DNA of 64,000 bases from Bacilli bacterium (GTDB lineage Bacteria; Bacillota_I; Bacilli_A; RF39; UBA660), in assembly GCA_017625395.1 (NCBI GenBank), contig JAGALD010000044.1:1248-65247 (forward strand), written 5' to 3'. The notes under the pieces are model-generated. The model did not search any database. It was given only the letters and a program-made list of their open reading frames with translations, and was not told the DNA's origin. The position numbers and the translations under genes are program-made. Positions 3,372 to 34,612 of the stretch are shown here, piece by piece. Each line of letters begins with the position of its first letter. Position 1 is the first letter of the stretch.

Positions 3372-4157
3372 TTATTCAAAATAATATAATTCAATAAAAT
3401 TATTTTTAAGATCTAATGGATTATATTTTGATATTTCATAACTTTTAATAATATATGGCATAATTAAATCTATGTCTTTTTCTTCTTTTATTTTAAAATA
3501 TCTACATAAGGGTCCATATGCAGTTCTGCCAACAACTTTAAGAATATTGTCATTATCTTCAACATTTAATAATCTGATATAAATACCATATTTCTTCTTT
3601 GAAATGATTGTAAAATTTCTTTTATTTTTAAACATAAGACCTTTTTTAGTGTAATGGGAAGTAACATTTGATCCAATAGAATTAATTTTAACTAATAACT
3701 TATTAAATAAAGTATCAACTGGATTAACTTTTAATTCAGTTAAATAATTATAAAGTTTATTACATAATCCAATTAAGTATGGTATTTCTTTCAAATCTGT
3801 TATTTTTATATAATGACATAGAGTAGAATTTTCATAACCTTTTCTTATAGATAATTTGTTGAAATTATCAAATTGCTTAATATCTTTATAAAAAGAGATT
3901 AATATATCAGATTGATTAACTTGTACTTCAATGATTTTTTTATTTAATTTATAGGCAACATTTTTCATTAAATAATTTCTTTTAATACTATTATTGATAT
4001 TTAATACTTGCTTATCAAATTCATCAAAAAGTTGTATAGCAATATCTTTTTTATTATAAATTATATTTTCATAACAACTTGTATCTACATTTAATAATTT
4101 TGATTTTCTCTTAGATGCTACTTTATCTACATTAGAAATAACATTAGTTTTAGACAT
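3372..4157 (-). CDS. hypothetical protein (possibly DUF5655-like, two similar halves)
   Basis: An ORF of 261 aa with no catalytic motif that I recognise. The halves NVAYKLNKKIIEVQV and NKRNFTIISKKKYGIYIRL recall DUF5655. Confidence 0.3.
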   Translation of the reverse strand: MSKTNVISNVDKVASKRKSKLLNVDTSCYENIIYNKKDIAIQLFDEFDKQVLNINNSIKRNYLMKNVAYKLNKKIIEVQVNQSDILISFYKDIKQFDNFNKLSIRKGYENSTLCHYIKITDLKEIPYLIGLCNKLYNYLTELKVNPVDTLFNKLLVKINSIGSNVTSHYTKKGLMFKNKRNFTIISKKKYGIYIRLLNVEDNDNILKVVGRTAYGPLCRYFKIKEEKDIDLIMPYIIKSYEISKYNPLDLKNNFIELYYFE

Positions 4158-4240
4158 ATCAATTACCTCACTATTAGAATATTGAACTCCATCATATATT
4201 AAATTATATGTAGAACAAACCTCTAGTTTGGTTGAGTAAT

Positions 4241-5344
4241 TTATATTATTTGCAAGTTTTTCTTCAAATTCAAATATGTTCCTGTATTTACTCCAAGATT
4301 ACAAGAGTTTTCTAATACTTGAAGAAAAGTTTGATGACCGTGACCTCCAGCTTTCCAACAACCAATCCTAGCACCACTTACAGTAACACTACCCGAATCA
4401 TAAAAAGTATCCTTCTCTAAGTCAACAACCCCTTCTTCAATTGCAGCAGCAGTAGTTATTATCTTAAAAGTACTTCCTGGCTCATATGACGCCCATATTG
4501 GAAGATTTCTATTAATCGCTTCAATACTATAATTTTGATAATTATTCGAGTCATATGTAGGTCTAGAACTCATACCTAATATTTCACCTGTATTAGGATC
4601 CATTACAACTGCAAGTGCCATATCAGGACTAAACATCGACACAATATTATTAAGCTCCCTTTCTAAAGACATTTGAATATTATAATCAATCGTTAATTCA
4701 AGATTCATTCCTTGCTGTGGTGCAACATATATATCTGACAATTTAAGACTATTGCCCTTAGCATCAGAAAAATACTTAATCGCACCATTCTCCCCAGTTA
4801 AATATTTATCATACTGTAATTCAATTCCAGAAAGCCCTTGGTTATCAATTCCAACATACCCTAAAACATGAGAAAGCATTTCCCCATATGGATAATATCT
4901 TTTAGATTCTTTAACCAAGTATACACCTTCAAACTCATAACTAGATATCTTATCTGCAACATCGTAAGATAATCCACGCCCTTCTGGATGAACTCTTTCA
5001 ATAGAAGTCTCTTTATAAACATGCTTATCCATTTCTTCTTTAGATACCCCTAATATCTGTGATAACGCACTAGAGACTTCTTCCTTATTATCAATCTGTC
5101 CAGGAATTAAAACTAAACTAGTAGTAGTAATATTATCTGCAAGAACTACACCATTTCTATCTAAAATTAATCCACGATCAGCAGCAAGAGGCAAATTCCT
5201 ACTCCACAAGTCATTAGCAAGTAACGTAAGTTTATCATATTCAAATAACTGTATATAAATCACTCTAACTATTACAAATACAAAAAGTAATACAACAATC
5301 AAAAAAACTACTCTTATTCTTTCATCAATCTTTTTCAAAAACAT
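4241..5344 (-). pseudogene. class B penicillin-binding protein (SpoVD/PBP2B/FtsI-like), truncated after the SxN motif
   Basis: An N-terminal TM helix and a PBP dimerisation region are present. The SxxK motif is in EPGSTFKIITTAAAIEEG and the SxN motif in LENSCN. The ORF stops 17 codons after SCN. The KTG box and the whole C-terminal part are missing, leaving 367 aa where class B PBPs are much longer. Confidence 0.7.
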
Positions 5345-5453
5345 AGCATCACCACTTAATAATATGTAAGAAAAAATAAATTATCTTATTCTTGACAATT
5401 TATCTAATTTTATTTATATTCAATTTGAACAAATTAGCTCTCAGGAGGCAGTT

Positions 5454-6920
5454 ATGTATATAAATAATAAAATTCTTGTAGGAAAAAACGAAACAACAGA
5501 AACAAACATTATACCAAAAATGGCAAATAGACACGGAATGATAAGTGGTGCTACCGGAAGTGGAAAAACAATAACATTAAAAGTTCTAGCAGAAAGTTTT
5601 TCCAGTGCAGGCATACCAGTTTTCCTAGTTGATATAAAAGGTGATTTAGCAGCAACAACAAAATCAGGTGTTACTAATTCAAATATAGAATCAAGACTAA
5701 CTAAACTGAATATAGAAAATTTTGAATTTAAAAAATTTCCAATAACATTTTGGGATGTATATGGAGAATTTGGTCATCCAATAAGAACAACAGTATCATC
5801 AATTGGTTCAAGACTTCTATCTAAAATGCTTAATTTAAGTCCAGTTCAAGAAGGTGTATTAGCAATTATATTTAAAATTGCGGAAGATGAAAATCTTGAA
5901 ATAATTGATTTAAAAGATTTAAAATCAATTCTTAGCTATGTTGGTGACAAAAGAAAAGAATATACACTTGAATATGGAAATATAACAGTACAAAGCATTG
6001 GAGCAATACAAAGAAATATATTAACACTTGAAGAAGAAGGTGGAGACTATTTCTTTGGTAAACCATCACTAGAAATAAATGATTTTATTCGTTTTGACGG
6101 CGAAACAGGAAATGGATATATAAATATATTACATGCATCTAAATTATTCCAAAAACCTAATTTATACTCTACTTTCCTACTTTGGTTATTAACTGACTTA
6201 TATAATAAAATGCCAGAAGTTGGTGATTTAGAAAAACCAAAACTTGTCTTTTTCTTTGACGAAGCGCATTTACTTTTTGATGATATGCCAGAACATTTAC
6301 TTGAAAAAATAACTCAAATAGTAAAATTAATAAGATCAAAAGGAATAGGACTATATTTTATATCACAAAATCCAAGTGACGTACCAGACGAAATTTTATC
6401 TCAATTAGGTAATAGAATTCAACATGTATTAAGATATTATACAAAAAATGATGAAAAAGCTATCAAAGCAGCTGCTAACTCTTTTAGAATTAATCCAGCA
6501 TTCGATACAGAAGAAGAAATTAAAAACTTAGCAACTGGAGAAGCTTTAGTATCATTTCTTGATGAAAAAGGCCAACCTTCAATTGTAGAGAAAGTTACAA
6601 TTCTTCCACCACAAAGTTTAATGGGAGCAATAACAGATGAAGAAAGAAAAAAATTTATTGAAGAAAGTTACTTGTACAATAAATATGAAAAGAAAATAGA
6701 TGAAGAATCTGCATTTGAAAAAATTGAAAAAGAAAATGAAAAAAAACAAGAAGAATTAGAAGAAGAAAAAAAGAAAAAAGAAAAAGAAGAACAAGAAAAG
6801 AAAGAAAAAAAGAAGAAACCTAGCAAAATAGAAAAAGCAATAGATAAATTTACTAATAGTGCAATAAGTACTCTAGGAAGAAAAATCGGAAACTCAATAT
6901 TTAAAAAACTATTTAAATAA
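5454..6920 (+). CDS. DUF853/YjgR-family P-loop ATPase (HerA/FtsK-like)
   Basis: Walker A motif GATGSGKT and Walker B-like VFFFDEAHLLF. The C-terminal tail is K/E-rich. A GGAGG RBS precedes the ATG at 5454. Confidence 0.7.
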   Translation: MYINNKILVGKNETTETNIIPKMANRHGMISGATGSGKTITLKVLAESFSSAGIPVFLVDIKGDLAATTKSGVTNSNIESRLTKLNIENFEFKKFPITFWDVYGEFGHPIRTTVSSIGSRLLSKMLNLSPVQEGVLAIIFKIAEDENLEIIDLKDLKSILSYVGDKRKEYTLEYGNITVQSIGAIQRNILTLEEEGGDYFFGKPSLEINDFIRFDGETGNGYINILHASKLFQKPNLYSTFLLWLLTDLYNKMPEVGDLEKPKLVFFFDEAHLLFDDMPEHLLEKITQIVKLIRSKGIGLYFISQNPSDVPDEILSQLGNRIQHVLRYYTKNDEKAIKAAANSFRINPAFDTEEEIKNLATGEALVSFLDEKGQPSIVEKVTILPPQSLMGAITDEERKKFIEESYLYNKYEKKIDEESAFEKIEKENEKKQEELEEEKKKKEKEEQEKKEKKKKPSKIEKAIDKFTNSAISTLGRKIGNSIFKKLFK

Positions 6921-6953
6921 ACATTTCAAAACATACTAAAATAATATCAAAAA

Positions 6954-6982
6954 AGAGAATGATTTTTATCATTCTCTTATTT
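6954..6982. terminator. bidirectional rho-independent terminator
   Basis: A 10-bp stem, agagaatgat (6954-6963) pairing with atcattctct (6968-6977), has a tttt loop. It is flanked by an A-run on the left and a T-rich tail on the right. Confidence 0.75.
6975..6982. repeat. left 8-bp target site duplication TCTTATTT of the IS
   Basis: Identical to 8371-8378 and immediately outside the left inverted repeat. Confidence 0.8.
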
Positions 6983-8370
6983 GAGTGTGTAAATATTTCT
7001 GTGTAAATGGTCTAACCATGATATATGAAGCAAAATTACTTGCTTCTTTTTTGTTATTTAAATAATAACATATAAAATTAATTTTTCAAAGAACTTAAAT
7101 TCTACCATCAAACATGATAGATAATTCACTCAAAATCATGTCCCAATTGCCATATCTAGTAGTCCATTTTTTAATAATATTTTGAGTAGCTAAATATAAA
7201 CATTTCATTAATGATTCATCATTTGGAAATACAGATTTTGTTTTAGTGTATTTTCTAAATGAACGATTTAATGATTCTATTGTATTTGTGGTATACATTA
7301 TTTTTCTAAGTGGTTCAGAATAACTAAAGAATGGACATATGGCATCCCAATTATCTTCCCAATTTCTAAGTGAAGTTGGATATTTATCTTTCCATTTTTC
7401 TTTTACTTTTTGTAATTGTTCATATCCTAATTTTTCATTTTTTGCAGTATAAATAGTTTTTAAATCATTACAGAATGGCCTTAAATCTTTATAATATACA
7501 AATCTTACAGAATTTCTGATCATATGAACGATACATCTTTGTTGGATTGTTTTTGGAAAAGCTGCTTGTATCGCTTCTTTAATACCTGTTAACCCATCAG
7601 AACACATTATCAAAATATCTTTTATTCCTCTGCCTTTTAAATCGTTTAAAACACCTAACCAAAACTTAGCTGATTCGTTTTCTCCTATCCAAATACCTAA
7701 TATATCTTTTTCACCATTCTCCGTTACACCTAAAACAATATAAGCCGCTTTTTTAACCACAGTATGTTCTTGTCTTACACTGAAATGTACTGCATCTATA
7801 AAAACAATTGGATAAACACTATCTAATGGTCTTTCTTGCCATTCTTTTATTTTTAGTAATATTTGATCTGTTATATTACTTACCATTGTAGCAGATACTT
7901 CTATTCCATATAAATCTTGGATTTGTTCGTTTATTTCTCTAGTTGATAAACCTCTGCCATATAAAGATATTATCTTATCTTCTATACCTGAAACATCTCT
8001 TTTATTCTTAGGAACTATTTTGGGTTCAAATTCACCATTTCTATCTCTAGGTGTTTCAAACTCAAACTCACCAAATTCACTTTTTAATGTCTTTTTAGTT
8101 GAACCATTTCTATAATTTGTTTTATTAGTTGTTTTATCATATTTAGAATATCCCATAGATGAATCAAATTCTGCATTCATCATTTCCTGTAATGAGTCTT
8201 TAAATAAATCTTTTATAGCACTACTTAAATCTTGTGCACTTTCTATTTCATAATTTTCTTGTAATATTTTTAATAATTCTTTTCCTTTGCTTTCTTTCAT
8301 ATAAAAAATCCTTCCATTTCTATTTTATCATGGAAAGATTTCCTATTTACACAGATTTATTTACAGACTC
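6983..8370 (-). mobile_element. IS256-family insertion sequence, complete (1388 bp)
   Basis: The terminal inverted repeats are 6983-7010 GAGTGTGTAAATATTTCTGTGTAAATGG and the reverse complement of 8342-8370, GAGTCTGTAAATAAATCTGTGTAAATAGG. They match at 23 of the first 26 positions. A single 401-aa transposase ORF lies between them, and perfect 8-bp direct repeats flank the element. Confidence 0.9.
7095..8300 (-). CDS. IS256-family (Mutator-type) transposase
   Basis: Stretches typical of IS256 transposases: YPIVFIDAVHFSVR, ILIMCSDGLTGIKEAI, QRCIVHMIRNS and TTNTIESLNRSFRK. Length 401 aa. Confidence 0.9.
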   Translation of the reverse strand: MKESKGKELLKILQENYEIESAQDLSSAIKDLFKDSLQEMMNAEFDSSMGYSKYDKTTNKTNYRNGSTKKTLKSEFGEFEFETPRDRNGEFEPKIVPKNKRDVSGIEDKIISLYGRGLSTREINEQIQDLYGIEVSATMVSNITDQILLKIKEWQERPLDSVYPIVFIDAVHFSVRQEHTVVKKAAYIVLGVTENGEKDILGIWIGENESAKFWLGVLNDLKGRGIKDILIMCSDGLTGIKEAIQAAFPKTIQQRCIVHMIRNSVRFVYYKDLRPFCNDLKTIYTAKNEKLGYEQLQKVKEKWKDKYPTSLRNWEDNWDAICPFFSYSEPLRKIMYTTNTIESLNRSFRKYTKTKSVFPNDESLMKCLYLATQNIIKKWTTRYGNWDMILSELSIMFDGRI

Positions 8371-19581: not shown

Positions 19582-21027
19582 TTAAGGTAACATTTCCATA
19601 ATATCATCATAAACACTAGATTTAACCTCTGAATAATCTAGATTCATAATAGTAATCTGAAGTGGTGTTGATGAATTTAAATCAACAAAAATAAATGACG
19701 CATTAAATGAATTTATAACACCTTCAACTATAAAACAATCATAACCATTTAATCTCTTATTATAGTAGTCAGAAACACTACCTGTTTCATTTAATTTAGC
19801 AATGAATTCTTCCTTAACAGATTGAAGTTGACTATAAGTTAAAGCATATTTATTAATTTGTGTATACCATGTTCCACTAGTAACAGTTAATTTATCATTA
19901 GATATTTGATATTGATATTTACTAGGAATAACAAAGTTTTCACCTAAAAATTTAACTTTTCCACCTTGATCAGTAGATGCATTACCACCATCATCATTAT
20001 CCTCATCGTCATCTTCTTCATCGTCTTCTTTATCTTCTTTTTTATCATTTTCTTTTTCTTCAGTTTCATCAGATTGAGTAAAATAATAAATTGCAAATCC
20101 ACCAGCACCAAGTATTGCAACAATTAATAACACTAACACAATAATAAGTCCAACACTCTTCTTTTTAGGTTGTTGATTCATTTGATTATTTACAGGTTGA
20201 ACATTTACCATCTCGTTTGCAGGATTTATAGGCATACCGTACATATTTTGTTGTGGTGTATTATTCATTCCACCAAACATTGGTTGTGGTGTTTCTTGTG
20301 TATTATTCATTCCACCAAACGCTGGTTGTGATGCTTCAGGAGCACTATTCATTCCACCAAACACTGGTTGAGGTGTTTCTTGTGCATTATTCATTCCACC
20401 GAACATTGGCTGTGGTGCTTCAGGTGTATTATTCATCCCACCAAACATTGGTTGTGATGCTTCAGGAGCACTATTCATTCCACCGAACATTGGTTGAGGT
20501 GTTTCTGGTGTATTATTCATTCCGCCAAACATTGGTTGAGATGCTTCTGGTATATTGTTCATTCCACCAAACATTGGTTGTGATGCTTCAGGTGTATTAT
20601 TCATTCCGACAAACATTGGTTGAGGTGTTTCTTGTGCACTATTCATTCCACCGAACATTGGTTGAGGTGTTTCTGGTGTATTATTCATTCCGCCAAACAT
20701 TGGTTGAGATGCTTCTGGTATATTGTTCATTCCACCAAACATTGGCTGTGATGCTTCAGGTGTATTATTCATCCCACCAAACACTGGTTGTTGTGCTTCT
20801 TGTGCACTATTCATTCCACCAAACACAGGTTGTGACATTTGAGAAGTATTTACTCCGCCAAAAATTGATTGTTGATTATTAAAATTATTATCAAAGCCCA
20901 TATTATTAATAACAGAATTATTAGCTACAACGTTACCATTATCAAATTCAACAGGACTTCCGCATTTATCACAAAATTTTTCATTCCCTTTTAAAGGATC
21001 TCCACATTTTTTACAAAACATATTCAT
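19582..21027 (-). CDS. single-pass membrane protein: N-terminal zinc ribbon, about 15 tandem QPMFGGMNNxPExx repeats, TM helix, acidic linker, C-terminal domain
   Basis: Zinc ribbon CKKCG...CDKCG, then 14-aa repeats. The TM helix is VGLIIVLVLLIVAILGAGGFAIYYF. The acidic linker is a D/E-rich run, EDKEDDEEDDDEDNDD. Confidence 0.75.
   Translation of the reverse strand: MNMFCKKCGDPLKGNEKFCDKCGSPVEFDNGNVVANNSVINNMGFDNNFNNQQSIFGGVNTSQMSQPVFGGMNSAQEAQQPVFGGMNNTPEASQPMFGGMNNIPEASQPMFGGMNNTPETPQPMFGGMNSAQETPQPMFVGMNNTPEASQPMFGGMNNIPEASQPMFGGMNNTPETPQPMFGGMNSAPEASQPMFGGMNNTPEAPQPMFGGMNNAQETPQPVFGGMNSAPEASQPAFGGMNNTQETPQPMFGGMNNTPQQNMYGMPINPANEMVNVQPVNNQMNQQPKKKSVGLIIVLVLLIVAILGAGGFAIYYFTQSDETEEKENDKKEDKEDDEEDDDEDNDDGGNASTDQGGKVKFLGENFVIPSKYQYQISNDKLTVTSGTWYTQINKYALTYSQLQSVKEEFIAKLNETGSVSDYYNKRLNGYDCFIVEGVINSFNASFIFVDLNSSTPLQITIMNLDYSEVKSSVYDDIMEMLP
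20240..20871 (-). repeat. in-frame 42-nt tandem repeat array (about 15 units) with a 168-nt higher-order unit
   Basis: The unit encodes QPMFGGMNN(T/I/A)(P/Q)E(A/T)(S/P). A stretch of about 95 nt at 20481-20576 recurs at 20649-20744, an offset of 168 nt. Confidence 0.85.
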
Positions 21028-25282: not shown

Positions 25283-26764
25283 CTAAACACGTTCATACAA
25301 AGAAAAATAATCATCTTCATATAATTCTTTATATCCATCATCTAAATCTAAAACAACTTTTAATTTATTAGTATTATAAATCACAACATGGCTTATATCA
25401 TATTTATCAAAAATAACATTATAACTTTTATATAATCCAACCGCATCCCTAAAAATAGTACACGAAGGATTAAACTCTTCTAAATAAAGATCTGCTCTTG
25501 AATCAATAAAAACAGGTATATTTTTATATAATAGATAACTTCCAAAATTATACTCATTAAATAATTTAATATTATCTAAATCTAAATTATTAATTATATA
25601 ATCAGAAAGTTCCACTGGATATTTTTTACTATTAATGAAATCTTTTTTATTATTAGATGATAAAATTGCAAAAGAAGTACTTAAAAACAAACAAATAAAA
25701 ATAACAAATATAATATTATTTAATAATACCTTCTCTACTGTCAAAGGACTTGATTTACCAATATACATTACTAAAAGTCTAGCAATACTAAAAATAGCTA
25801 AAACTGCAAATAAAGCATAACTTCTTCTAGACATAAATGCAAGTAATGCAAGCCCACCTAGCAAGAAAAGATCTTTAAGTTTTATTTTCATATTCTTTTT
25901 TAACATAAAAATAATCAAAATAGAAAGAATCACAAATAATTGTGGTCTCTCATTTATAGTAATAGGCAAATGTTCACTAATATGTGACATAGAAACACCC
26001 ATTTTAGTTTTTATCAAATAAGTAAATGGAACAAATCTATTAGGTGTTAAAAAACCAGTAAAAATAGAAATAATCATTACTATCAAAGTAGATTTAAAAT
26101 TACTACCATTTTCTATATCAACCCTATCTAAAGAAACCCAATTATCAAAATATTTAGAATTAACAAAGAAAATAATATCTGACACTAAATAAGGAAGAAA
26201 TAATACAAATATAAAAGGCCAAACAGCACAGTGTAAATTTGCAATCAACAAAGAACACAAAATTATATATAGAGAATATCTCTTATTTTTAGTATCTCTA
26301 AACATTTCTATTGAATATAAAATAATTAAAAAGAGAATATAAGTTACAAGTTGTGCTCTTGCAGCAATAAAACTACTCATAGTAAGAGATAAGATAACAC
26401 TTAAAATATAGGATATTCCCCTATCTTTAGTAATCTTATTACATGTAAAATACATAGTACTAATTAAAATAAAAGATAAAATTATTGTAGATATATATAT
26501 ACCATTTAATCCAAAAAAATTATAAATCAAATAAATAAAAACATCATACAACCAATGAGGATATGTATATTCTAATCCTTCAGTCCATGCAAAATGTTCC
26601 TTCATATCTACTCCATTTTCTATAATACTCTCACCTACTTTAATAGTATAAAAAGTATCATTTTGAAACACTTTAGGAGTAATAATTATAGCAATGCAAA
26701 TAAATGATATTATTAAAAGTATTTTAAATTTCAAATTATTTTTCTTATTCTTCATATTCATCAC
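25283..26764 (-). CDS. polytopic membrane protein with C-terminal soluble domain (GT-C/ArnT-like glycosyltransferase suspected)
   Basis: More than 10 hydrophobic helices, with an N-terminal loop NDTFYTIKVGESIIENG...YPHWLYDV. It sits next to the TagGH-like exporter. The functional call is weak. Confidence 0.3.
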   Translation of the reverse strand: MMNMKNKKNNLKFKILLIISFICIAIIITPKVFQNDTFYTIKVGESIIENGVDMKEHFAWTEGLEYTYPHWLYDVFIYLIYNFFGLNGIYISTIILSFILISTMYFTCNKITKDRGISYILSVILSLTMSSFIAARAQLVTYILFLIILYSIEMFRDTKNKRYSLYIILCSLLIANLHCAVWPFIFVLFLPYLVSDIIFFVNSKYFDNWVSLDRVDIENGSNFKSTLIVMIISIFTGFLTPNRFVPFTYLIKTKMGVSMSHISEHLPITINERPQLFVILSILIIFMLKKNMKIKLKDLFLLGGLALLAFMSRRSYALFAVLAIFSIARLLVMYIGKSSPLTVEKVLLNNIIFVIFICLFLSTSFAILSSNNKKDFINSKKYPVELSDYIINNLDLDNIKLFNEYNFGSYLLYKNIPVFIDSRADLYLEEFNPSCTIFRDAVGLYKSYNVIFDKYDISHVVIYNTNKLKVVLDLDDGYKELYEDDYFSLYERV

Positions 26765-26800
26765 AAAACAAGTATACTAGATAACATATTTTTTTTCAAA

Positions 26801-26824
26801 TTAAAAAGAGAATCAAGTTCTCTT
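26801..26824 (-). terminator. terminator after the 1620-aa repeat gene
   Basis: The stem is aagagaa (26806-26812) pairing with ttctctt (26818-26824). On the minus strand it is followed by TTTAATTT. Confidence 0.55.
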
Positions 26825-26835
26825 AATAATTAATA

Positions 26836-29800
26836 TTATTCTTTCTTCTTAGCTTTTACTTTTCCAATAACTTTTTTTTCAATACCAATTTTTTTAAGTA
26901 ATAACCCTAGATTATCTTTAAGTTCTAACAACTTATCTTCAATATTTAAAAGACCACATGATACTTCATAATCATTATTTTGAACAAGACTTTCAAAAGT
27001 ATTATTAAGTTTAGCCAACTCTTCCGGACTTGGAATTAAAACACTTGAAGGAAGATTTGCTAAAGGTGCAATCTTTTTCTTTCGTATAGTAAACCTGGTA
27101 GGTACATCAAATACTTTAAAATTACTAATTTTTCTTTTTTTAGTTTCTTTAGAGTCACTTTTTATCCCAACTGCAGAAACACTTACTGGAACCTTTTTTA
27201 ATAAATATTTACCTGCCACAACTTTTGTAGCAAGATTATTTATCTTTATCGCTTGTTTTTTATCTTCAATTCTATGAAATTCATCAAAATCTTCACCATA
27301 TCTACTTTTAAGTAATTCAATTTGTTTTGGAGTTAAAGAACTAAAAATTTCTTTAATTTGTGCATCAGAATACTTTTCTTTTAATCTTTCAATTAATACT
27401 TTATTTCTAGTTTGTGCAACACGAGTCGCCACACATTCAAAACCAAATTTATTTTTTATTAAAGAATTAATTCTAGCAACAATTCTTATATCGCTAATAG
27501 GAATTATTTCATCAAAAGATTCACCATAACGAGATACTAATAACGCTCTTTCTTCACTAGATAAATTATCAAGTAATAATGAAATCTGTTCTAAAGAATT
27601 TCTTTTCCTTAAACTCTCCATTAAAGTACAAACTCTTAAAGATCCATTATTTTCTTGTTTAATAGATTCTAATTTTTTCTTAAACTTACCTTTAATCAAT
27701 GTATAAGTTTTCTTTCTCAAAGAAGCATCAACAAAAATATCAGTATTAGTTAAATCATCACCATATTCTTTTTGCAACAAAGAAAGTTCTTCTTCTGTGA
27801 TATAAGAGAAAATACACTGAATTTCTTCTTCGCTATAGTATTTTAATAATCTTTTATATAATGAAAGTCCTTTTTCCTCTTTATGTTTAATTGAAGGATT
27901 TCTATAATCTTCAACTCTTTTAGGTATAGCAGAATACAAAAGATAATTAATTCTACTTATAACTTTTTCATCTTCAACTGAATTATATTCATCAAAGTTT
28001 TCACCAAAGCGTAATGTTAAATCTTTTCTTTCAGACTCACTTAAATTATCTAAAATATATTTTATTTCAGAATCATTATACTTTTCTTTTAACTTATCAA
28101 TAAAAGATGCTCTTATTTTAACTGAATCTTTTTTTCTTTTAGATTTTCCTACCTCCACTATATGAGATTCTACAATTGAATTAATTTTAGCAACAATTCT
28201 TATATCACTAATAGAAGTTATTTCATCAAAGTCATCTCCATAACGTGATACTAACAATTCTCTTTCTTCACTAGATAAACTATCAAAAAACAGTTTAATT
28301 TGGTCTAAAGAAATTCTTTTCCTTAAATTTTCCATTAAAGTACAAGTTCTTAAAACACCATTATTCTCTTTTTTAATAGAATCAAGTTTTTTCCTAAATC
28401 CACTATTTATTAATCTATAAGTTTTACATCTTAAAGAAGTATCATTGCTAATACCAATCCCCGATAAATCATCACCATACCCCTTTTGTAATAAAGAAAG
28501 CTCTTCTTCTGTAATATAAGAAAATATACACTCAATTTCTTCTTTACTATAATAGTTTGATAACCTTTCAGATAAAGAAAGAGATTTTTTCTTAACTGAC
28601 TCGCTTGAAGGATTTCTATTTTTTTCAATTCGTCTTAAAAGAGTATTATTAACAAAATTATGAATTCTAAATGCCAACTTTTTATCTTCTAACATATTAT
28701 ATTGATCAAAATTCCCACCATATCTAAGAGCTAACATTTCTCTTTCAGACTCACTTAAATTATCCAAAATATATTTTATTTCAGAATCACTATACTTCCT
28801 TTTTAATTTATCAATAAGAGAAAGATATATTTTTGATGACTCTTTTTTCATAGTTGCTTTATCTCTTCTATATTCCTTTATTTTAGCTTGAACTAGTGAA
28901 TTAATTTTAGCAACTACACTTATATCATCAATAGAAATAATTTCATCAAGCGACTTACCATAACGAGATTCTAATAAAACTTTATCTTCATCAGTTAAAT
29001 TTTCTAAGAAAGAAACTATTTCTTCATCACTCAAATTATGTGTTAACACTTCCATTAAAGTATAAATTTTTAATGAACCATTATTTTCCTGCCTAATATA
29101 TTCGATTTTTCTTCTAAAACCATGACTAATCAACCTATAAAGCTTATTTTTCAAAGACTTATCAAGATTAGCCTTACAACAAGTTAAATCATCACCATAT
29201 CCCATTTGTAACAAAGCCAACTCTTCTTGATTAATTAATTCAAATATAAATCGTATTTCATCATCACTATATTGATTTTTTAATCTAGAGACCAATGTTC
29301 TATTGGAAAGAACTTTTCTCTTTTCTTTTTCTTTAATTACAGGAGGATTTCTATACTTCTCAACCCTTTTAGGAATACTACCATAATAAAGAAAATTAAT
29401 CCTATTTATTAATTTTTGATCATCAAGAGAAAAGAACTCATCAAAATTTTCTCCATAACGTAAAGTTAATAATTTTCTTTCAGACTCACTTAAATTATCT
29501 AAAATATATTTTATTTCATCATCTGTATATTTCTCTTTAAGCTTTATAATGAAGTTTTTAGCCCTATCTTTCCGTTGTGAAATAGTCTTTTTCTTTAACA
29601 AAGTAGAAACAAGATAATTAATATGCTTAATTTGAGCTTTATCATCAATTTTTAAAAATTGATCAAAATTTTCTCCATATCTTAACTTAAGTAAAGTTCT
29701 TTCTTCATCAGTTAAAGAAGAAATTATCTCCTTAATTTCATCAAGATTATATACCCTACCTAATTTTTCAATAAGACTTAACTTTTTTTGTTTAACTTTA

Positions 29801-31698
29801 ACCTCGTTTTTTGCAACATCAGAATTTCTTAACTCATCTACTCTCACTGGAATAACTTTACTAACTAAATTATAAATTTCATTTCGAGTCTCAATACTTG
29901 AAACAAAACACAAAGTATCAAAACTTTCTCCATAACGTAGTTTCAAAAGATTTGCTTCTTCTTCTGTTAAATTAGTAAGAATATAAGTAATTTCATCGTC
30001 AGAATAATTTTCTTTTAAAATTTGCAGAAATGTTTTAGACTTACTATTTAGCATTCTCTTTGAAAAATTACCTTTAGCAAGAGATAATACCAATGAATTA
30101 ACTCTTGCAATATCACTTAAATCATCTAAATCAAAAACTTTATCTAAATCTTCGCCAAAACGTCTAATCAATAAATCTTTTTTCTCCAAAGGTAATAAAT
30201 CAATTATCGCATCAATTTGCTCATCACAATATTTTTCTCTTAAAATTTCTTTAAAAGACTCAACTTTAAGTTCACCATTATTCTTTTCTCTAGAGTCATC
30301 AATCGCTCTTTTCAAAGTAGAATTAATTAAAATATTTATCTTTTGTTGAACACCACTATCAACACCACAAACAACTTCATCCAACTTATCACCATAGCTT
30401 AGACGTAACAATTGAAGTTGCGACTCGTTTAATATATTAAAAATATATTTAATTTCTTCTTCATTATATTTTTCCTTAAGCCTATCATTAAAACTACGTT
30501 TTTTAGTTTTTCTTGCATCCTTACTATTAAAAAGACTAACGCTTTGTGGAACTACTTTAGTAAATATTTCTAAAGAATCCATACCTAAATCCAAATCTGC
30601 TGCTCTTTCTTGCAAACTCATTCCATAATACAATGCTAATGTATTTTTTTCTTCTTCTGTTAATGAAGAAAGAACATGACTTATTTCATTCTCATTATAC
30701 TTACAACTAACTAATTTTTCATATAAAGTTAATCCTCTAACATTATATTTATCAATATTTGGTTCCTTTATCTTCATTTCTTTTCCAAGAAGTCTAGGAA
30801 CCTTCACTAATACAATTTTAGAAATATCATCAGTATCTTTAAAACTTTTCTTTGCAATCAATTGATTAAAATCAGTTCCATATCTAGTTTGCAATAATTC
30901 TTTATCATCATCTGAAAGTAGTTTTAAAACTTTTGCAATATCATCAACAGAATAACTATGAGATAATAAATCTAAAAAAGTCTTTCTACCAAGCATTAAA
31001 TTTCTTCTTGAAACCTCTTCTAAAACTATCTCATTTACTAAAGTATTAATTTTAGCAATAGTATTAATATCATCAACTTCATATACTTTATCAAAATTTA
31101 TTCCACCATAACGTTTAGATAATAGTCTTCTTTCATTAGGTGTTAAAGATTTCAAAACTTGTTCAACACGTTCTAAAGAACATTCACAACTTAAAATCTC
31201 TTTTAAACTTCTTACTTTTAAAGTAGCATCATCAAAATTCTTTCTAGCATCATTTACTCTTTTTTGAAATGTAACAGAAAATAAATACCCAATACTTGAA
31301 TTAATTCTATCATCATACATATTTGCTGTAAGCTGTTCACCAAAAGCTTCTTTTAAAAGACTCAAATCTTTTTCTGTAATCGTATTAATTATATAATTAT
31401 TCTCTTCAGAAGAAAACTTTTTACTAAGCCTAGATATAAGTGGGGACTTTTCATCAATCAAACTACTAATACTAACATCATCTATTTTTTCAGAAACTTC
31501 TAAATTAGTACTTTGTAATCTTTCTGGTATCACTTTATAAATTAAATCTCTAATCTCTTGAATAACACTTTTATCATCAAGTTCAATAAATTCATCTAAA
31601 TTAGCTCCATACCTACTTCTTAACAACTCAATCTCAGAATCATTTAAAAGTCTCATTATTAAATCTTGAGTACTATCATCATACCTATCATTTAACAA
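26836..31698 (-). CDS. 1620-aa protein of about 19 tandem sigma-70 region-4-like modules plus a basic C-terminal tail
   Basis: The (R/G/E/S)(Y/F)G motif recurs at aa 31, 120, 198, 264, 359, 436, 515, 590, 675, 749, 835, 914, 994, 1075, 1154, 1232, 1313, 1392 and 1468. A typical module is DDEIKYILDNLSESERKLLTLRYGENFDEFFSLDDQKLINRINFL. No SD sequence is present. The first in-frame start is TTG at 31698, which overlaps the sigma stop. The first in-frame ATG is at 31656. Confidence 0.8.
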   Translation of the reverse strand: MLNDRYDDSTQDLIMRLLNDSEIELLRSRYGANLDEFIELDDKSVIQEIRDLIYKVIPERLQSTNLEVSEKIDDVSISSLIDEKSPLISRLSKKFSSEENNYIINTITEKDLSLLKEAFGEQLTANMYDDRINSSIGYLFSVTFQKRVNDARKNFDDATLKVRSLKEILSCECSLERVEQVLKSLTPNERRLLSKRYGGINFDKVYEVDDINTIAKINTLVNEIVLEEVSRRNLMLGRKTFLDLLSHSYSVDDIAKVLKLLSDDDKELLQTRYGTDFNQLIAKKSFKDTDDISKIVLVKVPRLLGKEMKIKEPNIDKYNVRGLTLYEKLVSCKYNENEISHVLSSLTEEEKNTLALYYGMSLQERAADLDLGMDSLEIFTKVVPQSVSLFNSKDARKTKKRSFNDRLKEKYNEEEIKYIFNILNESQLQLLRLSYGDKLDEVVCGVDSGVQQKINILINSTLKRAIDDSREKNNGELKVESFKEILREKYCDEQIDAIIDLLPLEKKDLLIRRFGEDLDKVFDLDDLSDIARVNSLVLSLAKGNFSKRMLNSKSKTFLQILKENYSDDEITYILTNLTEEEANLLKLRYGESFDTLCFVSSIETRNEIYNLVSKVIPVRVDELRNSDVAKNEVKVKQKKLSLIEKLGRVYNLDEIKEIISSLTDEERTLLKLRYGENFDQFLKIDDKAQIKHINYLVSTLLKKKTISQRKDRAKNFIIKLKEKYTDDEIKYILDNLSESERKLLTLRYGENFDEFFSLDDQKLINRINFLYYGSIPKRVEKYRNPPVIKEKEKRKVLSNRTLVSRLKNQYSDDEIRFIFELINQEELALLQMGYGDDLTCCKANLDKSLKNKLYRLISHGFRRKIEYIRQENNGSLKIYTLMEVLTHNLSDEEIVSFLENLTDEDKVLLESRYGKSLDEIISIDDISVVAKINSLVQAKIKEYRRDKATMKKESSKIYLSLIDKLKRKYSDSEIKYILDNLSESEREMLALRYGGNFDQYNMLEDKKLAFRIHNFVNNTLLRRIEKNRNPSSESVKKKSLSLSERLSNYYSKEEIECIFSYITEEELSLLQKGYGDDLSGIGISNDTSLRCKTYRLINSGFRKKLDSIKKENNGVLRTCTLMENLRKRISLDQIKLFFDSLSSEERELLVSRYGDDFDEITSISDIRIVAKINSIVESHIVEVGKSKRKKDSVKIRASFIDKLKEKYNDSEIKYILDNLSESERKDLTLRFGENFDEYNSVEDEKVISRINYLLYSAIPKRVEDYRNPSIKHKEEKGLSLYKRLLKYYSEEEIQCIFSYITEEELSLLQKEYGDDLTNTDIFVDASLRKKTYTLIKGKFKKKLESIKQENNGSLRVCTLMESLRKRNSLEQISLLLDNLSSEERALLVSRYGESFDEIIPISDIRIVARINSLIKNKFGFECVATRVAQTRNKVLIERLKEKYSDAQIKEIFSSLTPKQIELLKSRYGEDFDEFHRIEDKKQAIKINNLATKVVAGKYLLKKVPVSVSAVGIKSDSKETKKRKISNFKVFDVPTRFTIRKKKIAPLANLPSSVLIPSPEELAKLNNTFESLVQNNDYEVSCGLLNIEDKLLELKDNLGLLLKKIGIEKKVIGKVKAKKKE
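27229..31656 (-). repeat. in-frame tandem array of modules of about 240 nt (about 80 aa), about 19 copies
   Basis: The spacing of the RYG motif is 66-95 aa, mostly 75-86 aa. Confidence 0.8.
27379..29541 (-). repeat. higher-order super-repeat: three copies of a three-module unit (714 and 735 nt periods)
   Basis: tcagactcacttaaattatc recurs at 28031, 28745 and 29480. The protein triplets A (DNLSESER..LRYGENFDE), B (ITEEELSLLQKGYGDDL) and C (LSSEERELLVSRYGDDFDEI) each occur three times, in that order. Confidence 0.85.
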
Positions 31699-33035
31699 AT
31701 CTTTAAAAGATTTAAATTTAAATCCATATTATTTAGTGACTTAAAATATGGATGTTTTCCTAGCTTTTTACACGCCTTAACTTCTAATTGTCTAATTCTC
31801 TCACGAGTTACACCAAATTCAGCTCCTATTTCTTCTAATGTATAAATTCTACCATCTAAAAGACCTGTTCTAAGTAACATTATTCTATAAGCTCTAGGAT
31901 CTAATATTTCTTTTAAAATTTCCTTAAGAGCTTCATTAGACATATCATTTAAAAGAGCATCATAAGAATCAGTCGGATCAGCAACAAAATCTCCAATTTC
32001 AGTATCTTTATCTCCGCCTCTTCCTTCAACAATCGAATTTAAACTACCAACATTTTGATTTAAATCCAAATATTCCTGAAATTGATTTAAAGAAATTCCT
32101 AACTTTTCAGCGATCTCTTCATTACTTAAGTTACCTCCAAATTTTAGTTCTATTTCCTTCAACTTTTGTGATATTTTATATATCCATTCTCTTTTATGAA
32201 CTGGTATCCTAATAACTCTAGAATAATCATCAACATACCTTCTAATAGCTTGTCTAATCCAATGAGTAGCATAAGTAGAAAATGCAAAGTCCTTCTCTGA
32301 ATCAAATCTATCAATTGCAGTATTAAGACCAATTACACCTTCTTGCACTAAATCTTCATAATCTACTCCACTAAACAAATAACGATATGCAATCTTTTTA
32401 ACTAGTCTCATATTATGAATAATAAGCTGTTCCTTAGCATCATTATCTCCTAATTTAATTCTTTTATATAAATTTTTAATTTCATCACGAGAAAGAATTC
32501 TTCTCTCATCAGAAGGATCAAGCACATCTACACAAAAACTTATATTTTTTTCTTTAACATATGCACTATATAATCTCATAAGTTTTGGAAATGCTTCTTT
32601 GAGCTCATCATTTTCATAAATATTATCGTCAATATCAATAAAAAAAGGAGATAAAATATCTGAAAGATATTTATTATTACGTACTATTTTTCTATAAAAA
32701 TCTAAATCTATCTCTTCATTAATTGAACCAATTAATATAGATAACATTTTTATCTTTTCAACTTCAGAATAATCAGAGGAAGCTATTTTCTTAAATGAAG
32801 ACTTAAATAAACTTTCCCTATCTTTTGAATATAATTCATTTATTCTTCCTTTAATTAGTTTTTTTAAAGAACTTAATGCTTGCTTTTGATAAGTTTCAAC
32901 ATCATCTAAATCATTATTTAAAGAAGAATTCAATGCTAAGTCAACCATCTCTTCTTGCAACTTTAAATCAGGTATAACATATGAAAAATTATCTATAAAC
33001 TTAAGTAATTTTATTCGCAATTCTTCCCTATTCAT
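31692..33035 (-). CDS. sigma-70 family RNA polymerase sigma factor (group 1/2-like core, atypical ~180-aa N-terminus)
   Basis: Region 2 is DLVQEGVIGLNTAIDRFD and FSTYATHWIRQAIRRYV. Region 3 is VIRIPVH. Region 4 is YRIMLLRTGLLDGRIYTLEEIGAEFGVTRERIRQLEVKA. A strong AGGAGG RBS precedes the start. Confidence 0.9.
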   Translation of the reverse strand: MNREELRIKLLKFIDNFSYVIPDLKLQEEMVDLALNSSLNNDLDDVETYQKQALSSLKKLIKGRINELYSKDRESLFKSSFKKIASSDYSEVEKIKMLSILIGSINEEIDLDFYRKIVRNNKYLSDILSPFFIDIDDNIYENDELKEAFPKLMRLYSAYVKEKNISFCVDVLDPSDERRILSRDEIKNLYKRIKLGDNDAKEQLIIHNMRLVKKIAYRYLFSGVDYEDLVQEGVIGLNTAIDRFDSEKDFAFSTYATHWIRQAIRRYVDDYSRVIRIPVHKREWIYKISQKLKEIELKFGGNLSNEEIAEKLGISLNQFQEYLDLNQNVGSLNSIVEGRGGDKDTEIGDFVADPTDSYDALLNDMSNEALKEILKEILDPRAYRIMLLRTGLLDGRIYTLEEIGAEFGVTRERIRQLEVKACKKLGKHPYFKSLNNMDLNLNLLKIC

Positions 33036-33066
33036 AAAAGCCTCCTAAAGAGTTATATATCACATT

Positions 33067-33095
33067 ATTATAATGTTTTTTAAAAAAAATGAAAA
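33067..33095 (-). promoter_or_regulatory. sigma-A-type promoter of the sigma/repeat-protein operon
   Basis: On the minus strand: TTTTCA (33095-33090), a 17-nt spacer, then TATAAT (33072-33067). The sigma ATG is about 30 nt downstream. Confidence 0.5.
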
Positions 33096-33120
33096 GAAGA
33101 ATTTAATAATAAACTCTTCT
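33085..33120 (-). terminator. terminator between the HExxH gene and the sigma gene
   Basis: A 10-bp stem (one G-U pair) joins aaactcttct (33111-33120) and agaagaattt (33095-33104), with a 6-nt loop. On the minus strand it is followed by TTTTCATTTTTTTT. Confidence 0.6.
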
Positions 33121-33127
33121 AAAAAAC

Positions 33128-34612
33128 TTATTTTTTTATACCTACACAAGAACTTAAATTTTGAGGTACCTCATCACTTTCAATAAATTTTAAATTAATT
33201 GCATATCCTCTAAGTTCTTCAAGCTGTTCTTTTCTACTTAAAACCACATTTTTATCCTGCAAAATCATATCATCAACTAATTGATTAGATTTCAAAATTT
33301 CATCTTTTGATATTTCTGGAACAAAAGATGGATCAATCATAATTTGCTTAATTATTTTCCTACTAACCCCACTAACAAAATCAACATATGTGCGAAACTT
33401 TTCCTTATCTAAAACACTATACAGCAAATTACTATTTTCAGTAATTCTTGCTTCAATAATTAAATCTTTAAATTGTTGATAAAATCTTTCAATTAAAGGA
33501 AAACAATAACTATATGCGCTATGATTTTTTGAATAATGATAGTGATCAAATACTCTACCATTTTTTCTCTTAAAAATTTCTGCAATCTCAGATGAAATCT
33601 TATCATTTAAAAGTTCATCAAACACCCCAAATTCATCATTAGGCAAAACAGTTAGACCATTCTTATTAATAGGCTCCATATACGTCTTTCTCTCAATTGC
33701 CCCTAAAACAGAATTATTTAAAGAATGATTTATCTCATGAAAAAAACTATAATCATCTACAAAAAAATAAGGCATATATATTGCTGTATTCTCTTCATTT
33801 ATAGATATTGAAAAACACGAAAAAGCACTATCTTTTTGAATTTCACTAATATTACTTTCTAATTCTCTTCTATGTTTTCTTAACAAACATTTATCAGTTG
33901 ATCCAATAATACGAGCTTCCCTATCAATTGCATCATTTAAAAATCTATCAAATGGACTTTTATAAAGATAAGAATTGATTAAAGAAAGATCAACTAATCT
34001 CTTTTCTTTTTCATTAAGTTTTTCGGAATATGGTTTAATTTCATCCATATAAGAAATAGCACTTTGTATTTTTTCTAAAACATCAGGAGTAATTTCATTT
34101 TGATTAAAGTATTTTCTTACAAAAGATAATTTTTCTTCACTGCTCAAAAAGAAAAAATTATATAACGGACTAGAATCATACTCAAAATTAAAAATTCTAT
34201 TTTTTCCAAATAACATTTCAAGAAATCCATCCATAGAAACATCATAACCATTTTCTTCACAAAAAACATTATAAATTCTACCTGGATAAACCACAACTTC
34301 ATCATTTTTTAACGTTATACTTCCACTAACAGTATCCAAAAAAGGAATTGAATTAAATCCTAATCTATTTAATATTTGAATAGTAATATTTAATCTTTCA
34401 TTTAGTATATCATCACAAACTTTTTTATATCTTTCACCAGTTTTATTACTAAAATTCCAACAAAAAAATATATTATTATATTTTCTTGTAATTAATTCTC
34501 TATACTTTTCTCCATAATATTCAACAAAAACCTCAATAATTGCATCTTTATTATCATTAATCCTTCTATTGTAATCATCATTACACTTAGAAATAAACTT
34601 TCTATTACTCAT
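33128..34612 (-). CDS. uncharacterised 494-aa protein with a single HExxH motif (putative metallopeptidase)
   Basis: FFHEINHSL is the only HExxH motif. No TM helix or signal peptide is present. The start lies 5 nt after the hlyIII stop and has no SD sequence. Confidence 0.35.
   Translation of the reverse strand: MSNRKFISKCNDDYNRRINDNKDAIIEVFVEYYGEKYRELITRKYNNIFFCWNFSNKTGERYKKVCDDILNERLNITIQILNRLGFNSIPFLDTVSGSITLKNDEVVVYPGRIYNVFCEENGYDVSMDGFLEMLFGKNRIFNFEYDSSPLYNFFFLSSEEKLSFVRKYFNQNEITPDVLEKIQSAISYMDEIKPYSEKLNEKEKRLVDLSLINSYLYKSPFDRFLNDAIDREARIIGSTDKCLLRKHRRELESNISEIQKDSAFSCFSISINEENTAIYMPYFFVDDYSFFHEINHSLNNSVLGAIERKTYMEPINKNGLTVLPNDEFGVFDELLNDKISSEIAEIFKRKNGRVFDHYHYSKNHSAYSYCFPLIERFYQQFKDLIIEARITENSNLLYSVLDKEKFRTYVDFVSGVSRKIIKQIMIDPSFVPEISKDEILKSNQLVDDMILQDKNVVLSRKEQLEELRGYAINLKFIESDEVPQNLSSCVGIKK

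Follow-up and report, generated by a model that had tools for sequence, protein, structure and literature searches.

Our results show that a 64,000-nt stretch of DNA from a Bacilli bacterium (assembly GCA_017625395.1, contig JAGALD010000044.1, positions 1,248 to 65,247; hereafter the window) carries what was, by its sequence, a single giant SigA-like sigma factor gene, recently broken in two. The two pieces encode a 447-amino acid (aa) sigma-70 family protein and a 1620-aa protein made mostly of 19 tandem modules, whose central part is homologous to region 4.1 of the sigma factors themselves. The original prediction, made from the letters of the window, had described the pair as a two-gene operon. 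Both open reading frames (ORFs) were reproduced at the predicted coordinates, as was the overlap of the sigma stop with the first possible start of the array at 31692-31698, where no Shine-Dalgarno (SD) sequence precedes the array. The operon had to be given up, however: a fused single gene is normal in this lineage, and the split is a 46-nt deletion polymorphism between otherwise almost identical alleles (99.8% identity). Overall, we lean slightly towards an account in which a giant sigma has been split and its array serves as a docking platform. Note that the NCBI labels "hypothetical protein", for the array, and "sigma-70 family", for the sigma, conceal a single domain architecture.

In support of the fusion, the first homolog search returned a 2,078-aa relative (P0002), 89% identical, in which sigma and array form one protein, and the 90% cluster also contains a 2,081-aa fused protein (P0005). 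The P0005 and P0002 loci are syntenic with the window, with HlyIII, a 494-aa gene, the giant sigma and then a 492-aa membrane protein. Compared with two fused loci, L004 and L005, 46 nt (AAACCTCAACAAGTACATATTTCTAAATGTAATAAAATTGGTGATG) are missing from the window immediately behind ...AATAATATGGAT. A loss of 46 nt (3n + 1) moves the array into the -1 frame; the sigma portion stays complete despite the deletion in the linker. Apart from these 46 nt, the array is 99.8% identical to that of L004, with 3 amino-acid differences in 1620 residues, and the 23 kb compared with L004/L005 are 99.0-99.6% identical outside the deletion. An assembly error was rejected as the cause of the split and the allele taken as real, because it recurs in at least four assemblies or samples (an NCBI metagenome-assembled genome (MAG), SRR12529196, SAMN15830135 and ERZ28018764), always with the full ORF. 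The intact protein consists of an acidic N-terminus, the sigma2-sigma3-sigma4 core, a short linker, 19 modules and a basic tail.

The 447-aa part belongs to the sigma-70 family: regions 2, 3 and 4 (PF04542, PF04539 and PF04545), which span residues 179-430, all score above the Pfam gathering thresholds (Table 1). Region 2.4, the IRIPVH segment and region 4.2 (TRERIRQ) closely resemble those of primary sigmas, and the best matches among PDB sequences were SigA of S. aureus (176 bits), B. subtilis (169 bits) and C. difficile (169 bits), with lower scores for group 2 sigmas (133-145 bits) and for RpoH and SigF of group 3 (about 70 bits). The core thus looks SigA-like, in agreement with the prediction that regions 2.4, 3 and 4.2 are near the housekeeping type. 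A match to the MzaA-type sigma came through the core only (123 bits in PADLOC; 207 against a cut-off of 800 in NCBIfam). The first ~180 aa had been called unrelated, and residues 1-178 indeed matched no Pfam family; this N-terminus is restricted to the nearest clade (P0038, P0070, P0093 and P0100). Region 1.2 (PF00140) was not matched by Pfam in the window sigma and is present in the distant family members P0016, P0071 and P0029. The 447-aa sigma is presumably self-sufficient and still able to work alone.

Modules of the array and sigma region 4

A motif scan and a module hidden Markov model (HMM) both counted 19 units, spaced by a median of 79 aa, as anticipated (~19 modules of ~80 aa). In each module a region-4.1-like core, L(S/T)xxE(R/K)xLLxLRYG, is followed by a loop and a long basic helix. 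Pairwise identity among the modules ranges from 14 to 70%, and modules 10-18 form a three-module super-repeat. Tandem Repeats Finder detected no repeat at the DNA level in the array, because the modules have diverged too far. The N-terminal module halves carry a total charge of -66 and the C-terminal halves plus linkers a total of +66; each module is a charge dipole, and the net charge of 0 rules out a strongly basic array. The C-terminal tail is basic and lies outside the repeat, as had been claimed, but comprises 108 aa and not ~130; it is conserved in the nearest relatives only.

The modules had been proposed to be degenerate copies of region 4. Our comparisons bear this out for region 4.1 and not for the rest. 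On the whole 1620-aa protein, Pfam Sigma70_r4 scored 59.7 bits (E 1.9e-16), with all matches limited to about positions 2-20 of the 50 in the profile; single modules gave a best E of 0.0014, with matches in 4 of 27. The same limit holds family-wide, since array proteins match Sigma70_r4 or r4_2 via the first 20-30 profile positions only, and no full-length Sigma70_r4 domain match was found in the modules. Searching PDB sequences with two module profiles (A2 and A3) gave region 4.1 of SigA/RpoD as best match (E 0.003-0.03) and little else. In hhalign, the module profile aligned with the true region 4 of same-family sigmas (A5) at a probability of 93.7% (E 1.9e-7) over 35 columns, and the smaller profile A2 at 86.5%. 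This alignment pairs module columns 10-44 with region-4 columns 3-38 and stops just before the TLEE position, all within region 4.1. No Pfam or hhalign alignment reaches region 4.2, and no helix-turn-helix with a recognition helix was found in the modules. Two finer equivalences of the original prediction, SLDD with TLEE and INRINFL with RERIRQL, are therefore backed by no alignment, while its conclusion that the modules have lost the recognition-helix residues stands.

The AlphaFold2 model of one module, built from a 27-sequence alignment, had a mean predicted local distance difference test score (pLDDT) of 88. Of its four helices, the first three (residues 4-9, 14-22 and 26-36) are separated by a loop of about 12 residues (37-48) from the long fourth one (49-71, about 23 residues), and there is no helix-turn-helix. 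In the four-module model (pLDDT 83; predicted template modelling score (pTM) 0.48) the modules were confident and two of the three linkers were of low confidence. This model points to beads on a string and not to a rigid rod; a rigid solenoid was rejected on the two low-confidence linkers and the pTM of 0.48. When the one-module model was compared with the PDB by Foldseek, template modelling scores (TM-scores) to sigma4 were just 0.3-0.4, yet sigma region 4 made up most of the top 40 matches. Over the sequence and structure searches, the PDB entries nearest to the module were sigma4 complexes with gp67 and WhiB proteins.

Taken together, the modules most probably descend from sigma region 4, with a central part homologous to region 4.1 (sigma4 helices 1-2). 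According to the models, the region 4.2 helix-turn-helix has been replaced by a loop and one long basic helix, and the modules accordingly lack the DNA-reading element of sigma. Another possibility could be that the modules are a generic helical repeat, whose likeness to region 4 arose by chance or composition. BLASTP with the sigma's own region 4 against the array was not significant (E 0.1-0.5) and the Foldseek E-values were 1 or higher, as this alternative would have it. We nevertheless give it very little credence: Sigma70_r4 or r4_2 is the top Pfam match for the window array and for most array proteins tested, region 4.1 of SigA is the best PDB match for two independent module profiles, hhalign probabilities reach 86-94%, arrays are physically joined to sigma factors, and a full sigma4-like domain ends 56 of 149 family members.

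A family of arrays in uncultured gut Bacilli

An exhaustive module-profile search over 1.84 billion representative proteins (clusters at 50% identity) returned 873 proteins or clusters at E <= 0.001, 288 at E <= 1e-10 and 74 at E <= 1e-30, with 2 to 19 modules per protein, so that 19 is the maximum. The family is visible only by such a search, because word-indexed searching found few relatives: three proteins with the 1620-aa protein and none with the module alignment. A related-locus search based on P0005 gave nothing in GTDB genomes and only plain sigma in viral contigs. The array is no rare oddity, being found in 873 clusters and also on its own. This is a large and apparently undescribed family.

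Among the best 150 profile matches, a sigma core was present in the same protein in 69, located N-terminal of the array in 62 and C-terminal in 7; the other array proteins included 80 with no sigma core, some of which may be fragments. Some of the fused sigmas are SigA-like, with regions 1.2 to 4, and others are short, group-3-like and start at about residue 15. Sigma and array also occur as abutting separate genes. The 949-aa sigma of L006 has two array genes behind it, the first with 18 modules and an SD-preceded ATG that overlaps the sigma stop, the second with 16 modules; the sigma gene of L007 (1,090 aa), which has an SD and an ATG to itself, directly adjoins an array gene of 17 modules. 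The sigma-array association is therefore conserved, through fusion in 69 of 150 and through abutting genes at these two loci.

Both loci have further features. L006 (2162-18382; GCA_017435485.1, a Bacilli MAG) holds five sigma and array paralogs in a row: a 381-aa sigma-like protein, a 595-aa protein (3 modules), the 949-aa sigma (3 modules) and arrays of 1862 aa (18 modules) and 1568 aa (16 modules). Several sigma and array paralogs can therefore sit side by side in one genome. The L007 pair (3447-7924) lies directly downstream of a Tad/type-IV-pilus-like cluster (TadE, a CpaE-like ATPase, T2SSE and two T2SSF genes), with FtsW/SpoVE and SpoIIP on the downstream side of the pair; judging from this context, some carriers look like spore formers with a cell wall. 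A third locus, L032 (2589-5955), has a run of four ORFs (262-334 aa) that overlap slightly and encode 2-3 modules each, and these may be either a frameshift-broken array or mini-array genes. The neighbours of the examined family loci are ordinary housekeeping genes.

In 56 of 149 representatives the array is followed by a complete sigma4-like cap, with the approximate consensus L(T/S)xKEAxIIxL(K/R)(F/L)G(Y/F)(V/I)DxK(Y/F)(Y/F)SxExIAxFLGI and an acidic would-be recognition helix (...GISEEEV..., with SEEEV and not TRERIRQ). Carriers of the cap include P0019, P0020, P0022, P0024, P0053, P0066 and P0073, and it is missing from the clade of the window. A degenerate two-module DNA pattern, run against one genome per GTDB species, returned 46 loci, 13 with true arrays and the remainder chance matches. 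All 13 were records of uncultured Bacilli bacterium from human (Hadza) and rabbit gut. Every verified genome locus of the family comes from an uncultured Bacilli MAG, and the loci checked have 22-27% G+C.

Comparison of the window (26836-33035) with L001 (7001-13237) gave ratios of nonsynonymous to synonymous divergence (dN/dS) that are alike in the sigma part (0.30) and the array (0.32) and higher in the tail (0.70). The array is maintained as coding sequence under purifying selection, and selection on the tail is relaxed. P0005 and P0002 are mosaic, with 61-87% identity over residues 1-1000 and 95-100% over residues 1001-1900, and synonymous divergence (dS) between the window and L001 amounts to 0.50 in the sigma part but only 0.16 in the array; therefore, recent recombination over the distal two-thirds of the array is suggested. 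The number of modules also changes quickly. P0003 (9 modules) and P0012 (7 modules), from one 90% cluster, differ by a clean in-frame 172 aa, that is by two modules, which indicates that copy number is polymorphic within a species-level cluster. The syntenic ortholog at L008 (P0038; 1,007 aa) has only 5 modules, and a long array is therefore not essential.

Layout of the locus

The positions of the features in the window are collected in Table 1. The G+C content around the locus is about 25%, and nearly all genes lie on the minus strand. After the TTG, the next ATG in the array ORF is codon 15, which is used by one gene call (P0007).

Table 1. Features of the split giant sigma locus (positions in the window)
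Feature	Position	Strand	Details
Sigma-70 family gene	31692-33035	-	447-aa ORF; N-terminal part of the ancestral giant sigma
Acidic clade-specific N-terminus, aa 1-178	32502-33035	-	Only in the closest clade
sigma2	32217-32426	-	Pfam region 2, 74.9 bits
sigma3	31974-32183	-	Pfam region 3, 39.6 bits
sigma4	31761-31904	-	Pfam region 4, 54.0 bits
Deletion scar in sigma4-array linker	31721-31722	-	46 nt missing relative to the fused allele, from alignments with L001/L002 and L004/L005
T_TTA_AAG heptamer	31701-31707	-	In frame, two codons 5' of the sigma stop; one of four X_XXY_YYZ
Stop/start overlap	31692-31698	-	Sigma TAA 31694-31692; first possible array start TTG 31698-31696
Array ORF	26836-31698	-	1620 aa, TTG start
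Array of 19 tandem ~79-aa modules	27163-31698	-	aa 1-1512 of the 1620-aa ORF; module HMM, 19 stretches
Non-repeat basic tail, 108 aa	26839-27162	-	pI (isoelectric point) 9.8, net charge +10; stop codon 26836-26838
Promoter-like TTTTCA-17-TATAAT and GGAGG SD	33041-33095	-	5' of the sigma ATG; promoter-like match 33095-33067, GGAGG 33045-33041
Hairpin and U-run, 3' of upstream 494-aa gene	33082-33120	-	Fold -11.1 kcal/mol, z = -3.69; likely intrinsic terminator
Hairpin AAGAGAA/TTCTCTT and T-rich run, 3' of array stop	26798-26824	-	-8.6 kcal/mol, z = -1.69; possible terminator

The boundaries first drawn around the pair, a promoter and two terminators, held in part. The promoter-like match is present, but shuffled sequence yields such sites at least as often as this AT-rich region does. 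The hairpin upstream is likely to be an intrinsic terminator by its fold, whereas the one downstream is weak and only possibly a terminator; a consensus terminator scan reported neither. Rfam and tRNA scans of the window gave no matches.

The genes on either side encode a 494-aa soluble protein (33128-34612, minus strand) and a 493-aa multi-pass membrane protein (25283-26764, minus strand). Both are syntenic in close relatives, and the 494-aa gene is missing from the more distant syntenic locus L008. Neither protein matched a Pfam or PADLOC family, and the 494-aa protein had no NCBIfam or PHROGs match either. Elsewhere in the window (19582-21027, minus strand), a 481-aa protein carries an N-terminal zinc-ribbon motif (CxxC...CxxC) and about 14 tandem copies of the 14-aa unit PEASQPMFGGMNNT at 20254-20834 (42-nt period, 82% matches), followed by a transmembrane segment and then a very acidic stretch.

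Possible roles of the array and closest known systems

Region 4.1 helps to form the sigma4 surfaces that hold the beta-flap tip of RNA polymerase and that are used by anti-sigma proteins and activators, and our guess is therefore that the modules bind ligands of this kind. In the intact protein, the array would project from sigma4 at the upstream side of the promoter complex and present many copies of a sigma4.1-like surface on a flexible, beads-on-a-string platform. The modules might bind the beta-flap tip of further RNA polymerases, or regulators and inhibitors directed at sigma4, and the array would not itself read DNA sequence. We propose such a flexible, multivalent docking platform carried by sigma with low confidence, as a tentative idea that is more probably wrong than right. 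A more specific version, in which the array is a multivalent hub that clusters RNA polymerases via their beta-flap tips or soaks up phage inhibitors of sigma4, is unlikely; if true, it would be a principle of transcription control without described precedent, loosely like the C-terminal domain (CTD) of RNA polymerase II (Pol II) or decoy immunity.

Several results weigh against the picture of a split SigA-like sigma with a docking array. As to a role as the primary sigma of the cell, the protein falls short of the RpoD equivalog cut-offs (212 against 354 bits for TIGR02393 and 212 against 572 for NF006666, both in NCBIfam), and no dnaG, which shares an operon with sigA in Firmicutes, was seen beside the giant sigma in the window or in the neighbourhoods of any related locus inspected. 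Foldseek found nothing significant in the PDB for the one- and four-module models (E >= 1). Arrays stand alone, with no sigma gene nearby, at L020, L026, L032 and L050, and a sigma tether is therefore not strictly needed by the array. Finally, the missing SD bears on whether the split allele produces any array, and no stimulator of frameshifting was found around the slippery heptamers: neither a downstream RNA structure (81 nt, z = -0.63) nor an upstream GGAGG or other SD-like sequence.

Production of the array from the split allele would by now be inefficient and depend on ribosomes that re-initiate at the SD-less TTG or slip by -1 at T_TTA_AAG. The array might even be a fresh pseudogene, which looks intact only because little time has passed since the deletion and which gives no useful expression. 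The very recent split, with its 3 differences from L004, the lack of an SD and the ortholog with just 5 modules all speak for this possibility, which we consider real if unlikely; against it, the allele is found in several samples with the full ORF every time, separate array genes are functional arrangements elsewhere, and re-initiation or slippage could still yield some expression. A different reading of the same junction is programmed -1 frameshifting at T_TTA_AAG (31707-31701), by which the cell would make free 447-aa sigma and the full fusion in a fixed ratio. The last 12 sigma codons hold four in-frame heptamers of the X_XXY_YYZ type, between 31701 and 31722, against a background per codon of 1.5% for any X_XXY_YYZ and 0.12% for the ..AAAG type. 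A -1 slip at T_TTA_AAG would rebuild the fusion as ...NLNLLK-DLLNDRYDD..., near the ...SFKDLLNDRYDD of the fused allele. These heptamers, however, are the ancestral TTT AAA codons (Phe-Lys; FKFKSFK) read one base out of register, and they follow automatically from the shift; the stimulators are missing, as described above, and the layout is not conserved, relatives encoding the fusion in a single frame. Slippage is possible, to judge from the junction, but probably not programmed, and we regard a programmed event as improbable.

Another possibility, in line with the original prediction, could be a true two-component pair: sigma and array would be separate, translationally coupled proteins, and the array, being free, would titrate in trans whatever binds region 4, as a decoy or sponge for phage anti-sigma proteins, the beta-flap or activators. 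At L006 and L007, sigma and array are independent genes that both have an SD and an ATG, which makes a two-protein mode of action plausible. Stand-alone arrays exist, the split allele persists in several samples with an intact 1620-aa ORF, and the fast variation of the modules (2-19 copies, with a two-module polymorphism in one 90% cluster) would fit an arms race, T4 AsiA and phage G1 gp67 being known to target sigma region 4. Set against this are the ancestral fused form in this lineage and its very recent split (99.8% identity), an array with no SD and only the TTG or the codon-15 ATG as candidate starts, the absence of any PADLOC or PHROGs family for the array, and a dN/dS of 0.32, which means no overall diversifying selection; we find the pair unlikely for the window. 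We think it somewhat less likely again that the array acts as a nucleoid or UP-element-like anchor, keeping the holoenzyme on AT-rich DNA by non-specific binding of nucleic acid through its Lys-rich linkers and basic C-terminal helices. The +66 charge of the C-terminal module halves and linkers, the tail with its pI of 9.8, and the placement of the sigma C-terminus in the promoter complex, at its upstream (-35) side, would suit such an anchor, but the whole array is neutral, with -66 in the N-terminal halves, the DNA-reading helix-turn-helix is exactly the part that was lost, and the array matches no nucleic-acid-binding family. Present evidence would hardly support a firm ranking of the decoy, frameshift, pseudogene and DNA-anchor alternatives.

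Sigma factors are among the best-studied bacterial proteins, and here a large family under purifying selection is joined to sigmas of the SigA-like as well as the group-3-like kind. Binding of RNA polymerase or of regulators directed at sigma4, if the modules are capable of it, would amount to a new means of organising or protecting the initiation of transcription. The natural fused and split alleles offer a ready comparison for the role of the array.

To our knowledge, no described sigma carries a tandem array made from its own region 4. The module matched no characterised family in Pfam, NCBIfam, PADLOC, PHROGs or PDB, which agrees with the initial view that the array falls outside any characterised family. 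In PADLOC and PHROGs, the array and both flanking genes were without a match, and nothing beyond the generic sigma core pointed to a defence system. Full-text literature searches gave no description of the array, although such absence is no proof of novelty.

The closest known proteins are the primary and primary-like sigma-70 factors (SigA/RpoD, groups 1-2), with which the giant sigma shares sigma2-4, region 2.4, IRIPVH and TRERIRQ. It differs from them in scoring below the equivalog cut-offs, in lacking the Pfam region 1.2 and an adjoining dnaG, and in adding a clade-specific 178-aa N-terminus and, when intact, a 1,630-aa C-terminal extension. The modules resemble sigma-70 region 4 (PF04545/PF08281), to whose region 4.1 their L(S/T)xxE(R/K)xLLxLRYG core and the preceding helix align; they differ in having no helix-turn-helix, an extra N-terminal helix, a long C-terminal helix and 2-19 tandem copies.

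C-terminal extensions are also known from extracytoplasmic function (ECF) sigmas, ECF41, ECF42 and ECF56 carrying SnoaL-like or tetratricopeptide repeat (TPR) domains. Such proteins likewise join a sigma to a fused, non-DNA-binding C-terminal part that presumably modulates its activity (PMC7730460, PMC9023288). Those are, however, group 4 sigmas with a single sensor-type domain unrelated to sigma4, whereas the repeats here stem from the region 4 of the very sigma that carries them, which is SigA-like (group-3-like in some relatives). As candidate ligands of a region-4.1-like surface, proteins that target sigma region 4 come to mind, namely T4 AsiA, Rsd, phage G1 gp67 and the WhiB-like proteins; the array is not homologous to any of them. 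Finally, eukaryotic RNA polymerase II ends in a C-terminal tail of heptad repeats, the Pol II CTD. The analogy with the array is functional only: both are flexible, repetitive tails of variable copy number and possible multivalent docking platforms, and they differ in sequence, in repeat unit (7 aa against folded helices of ~79 aa), in the subunit that carries them and in the domain of life.

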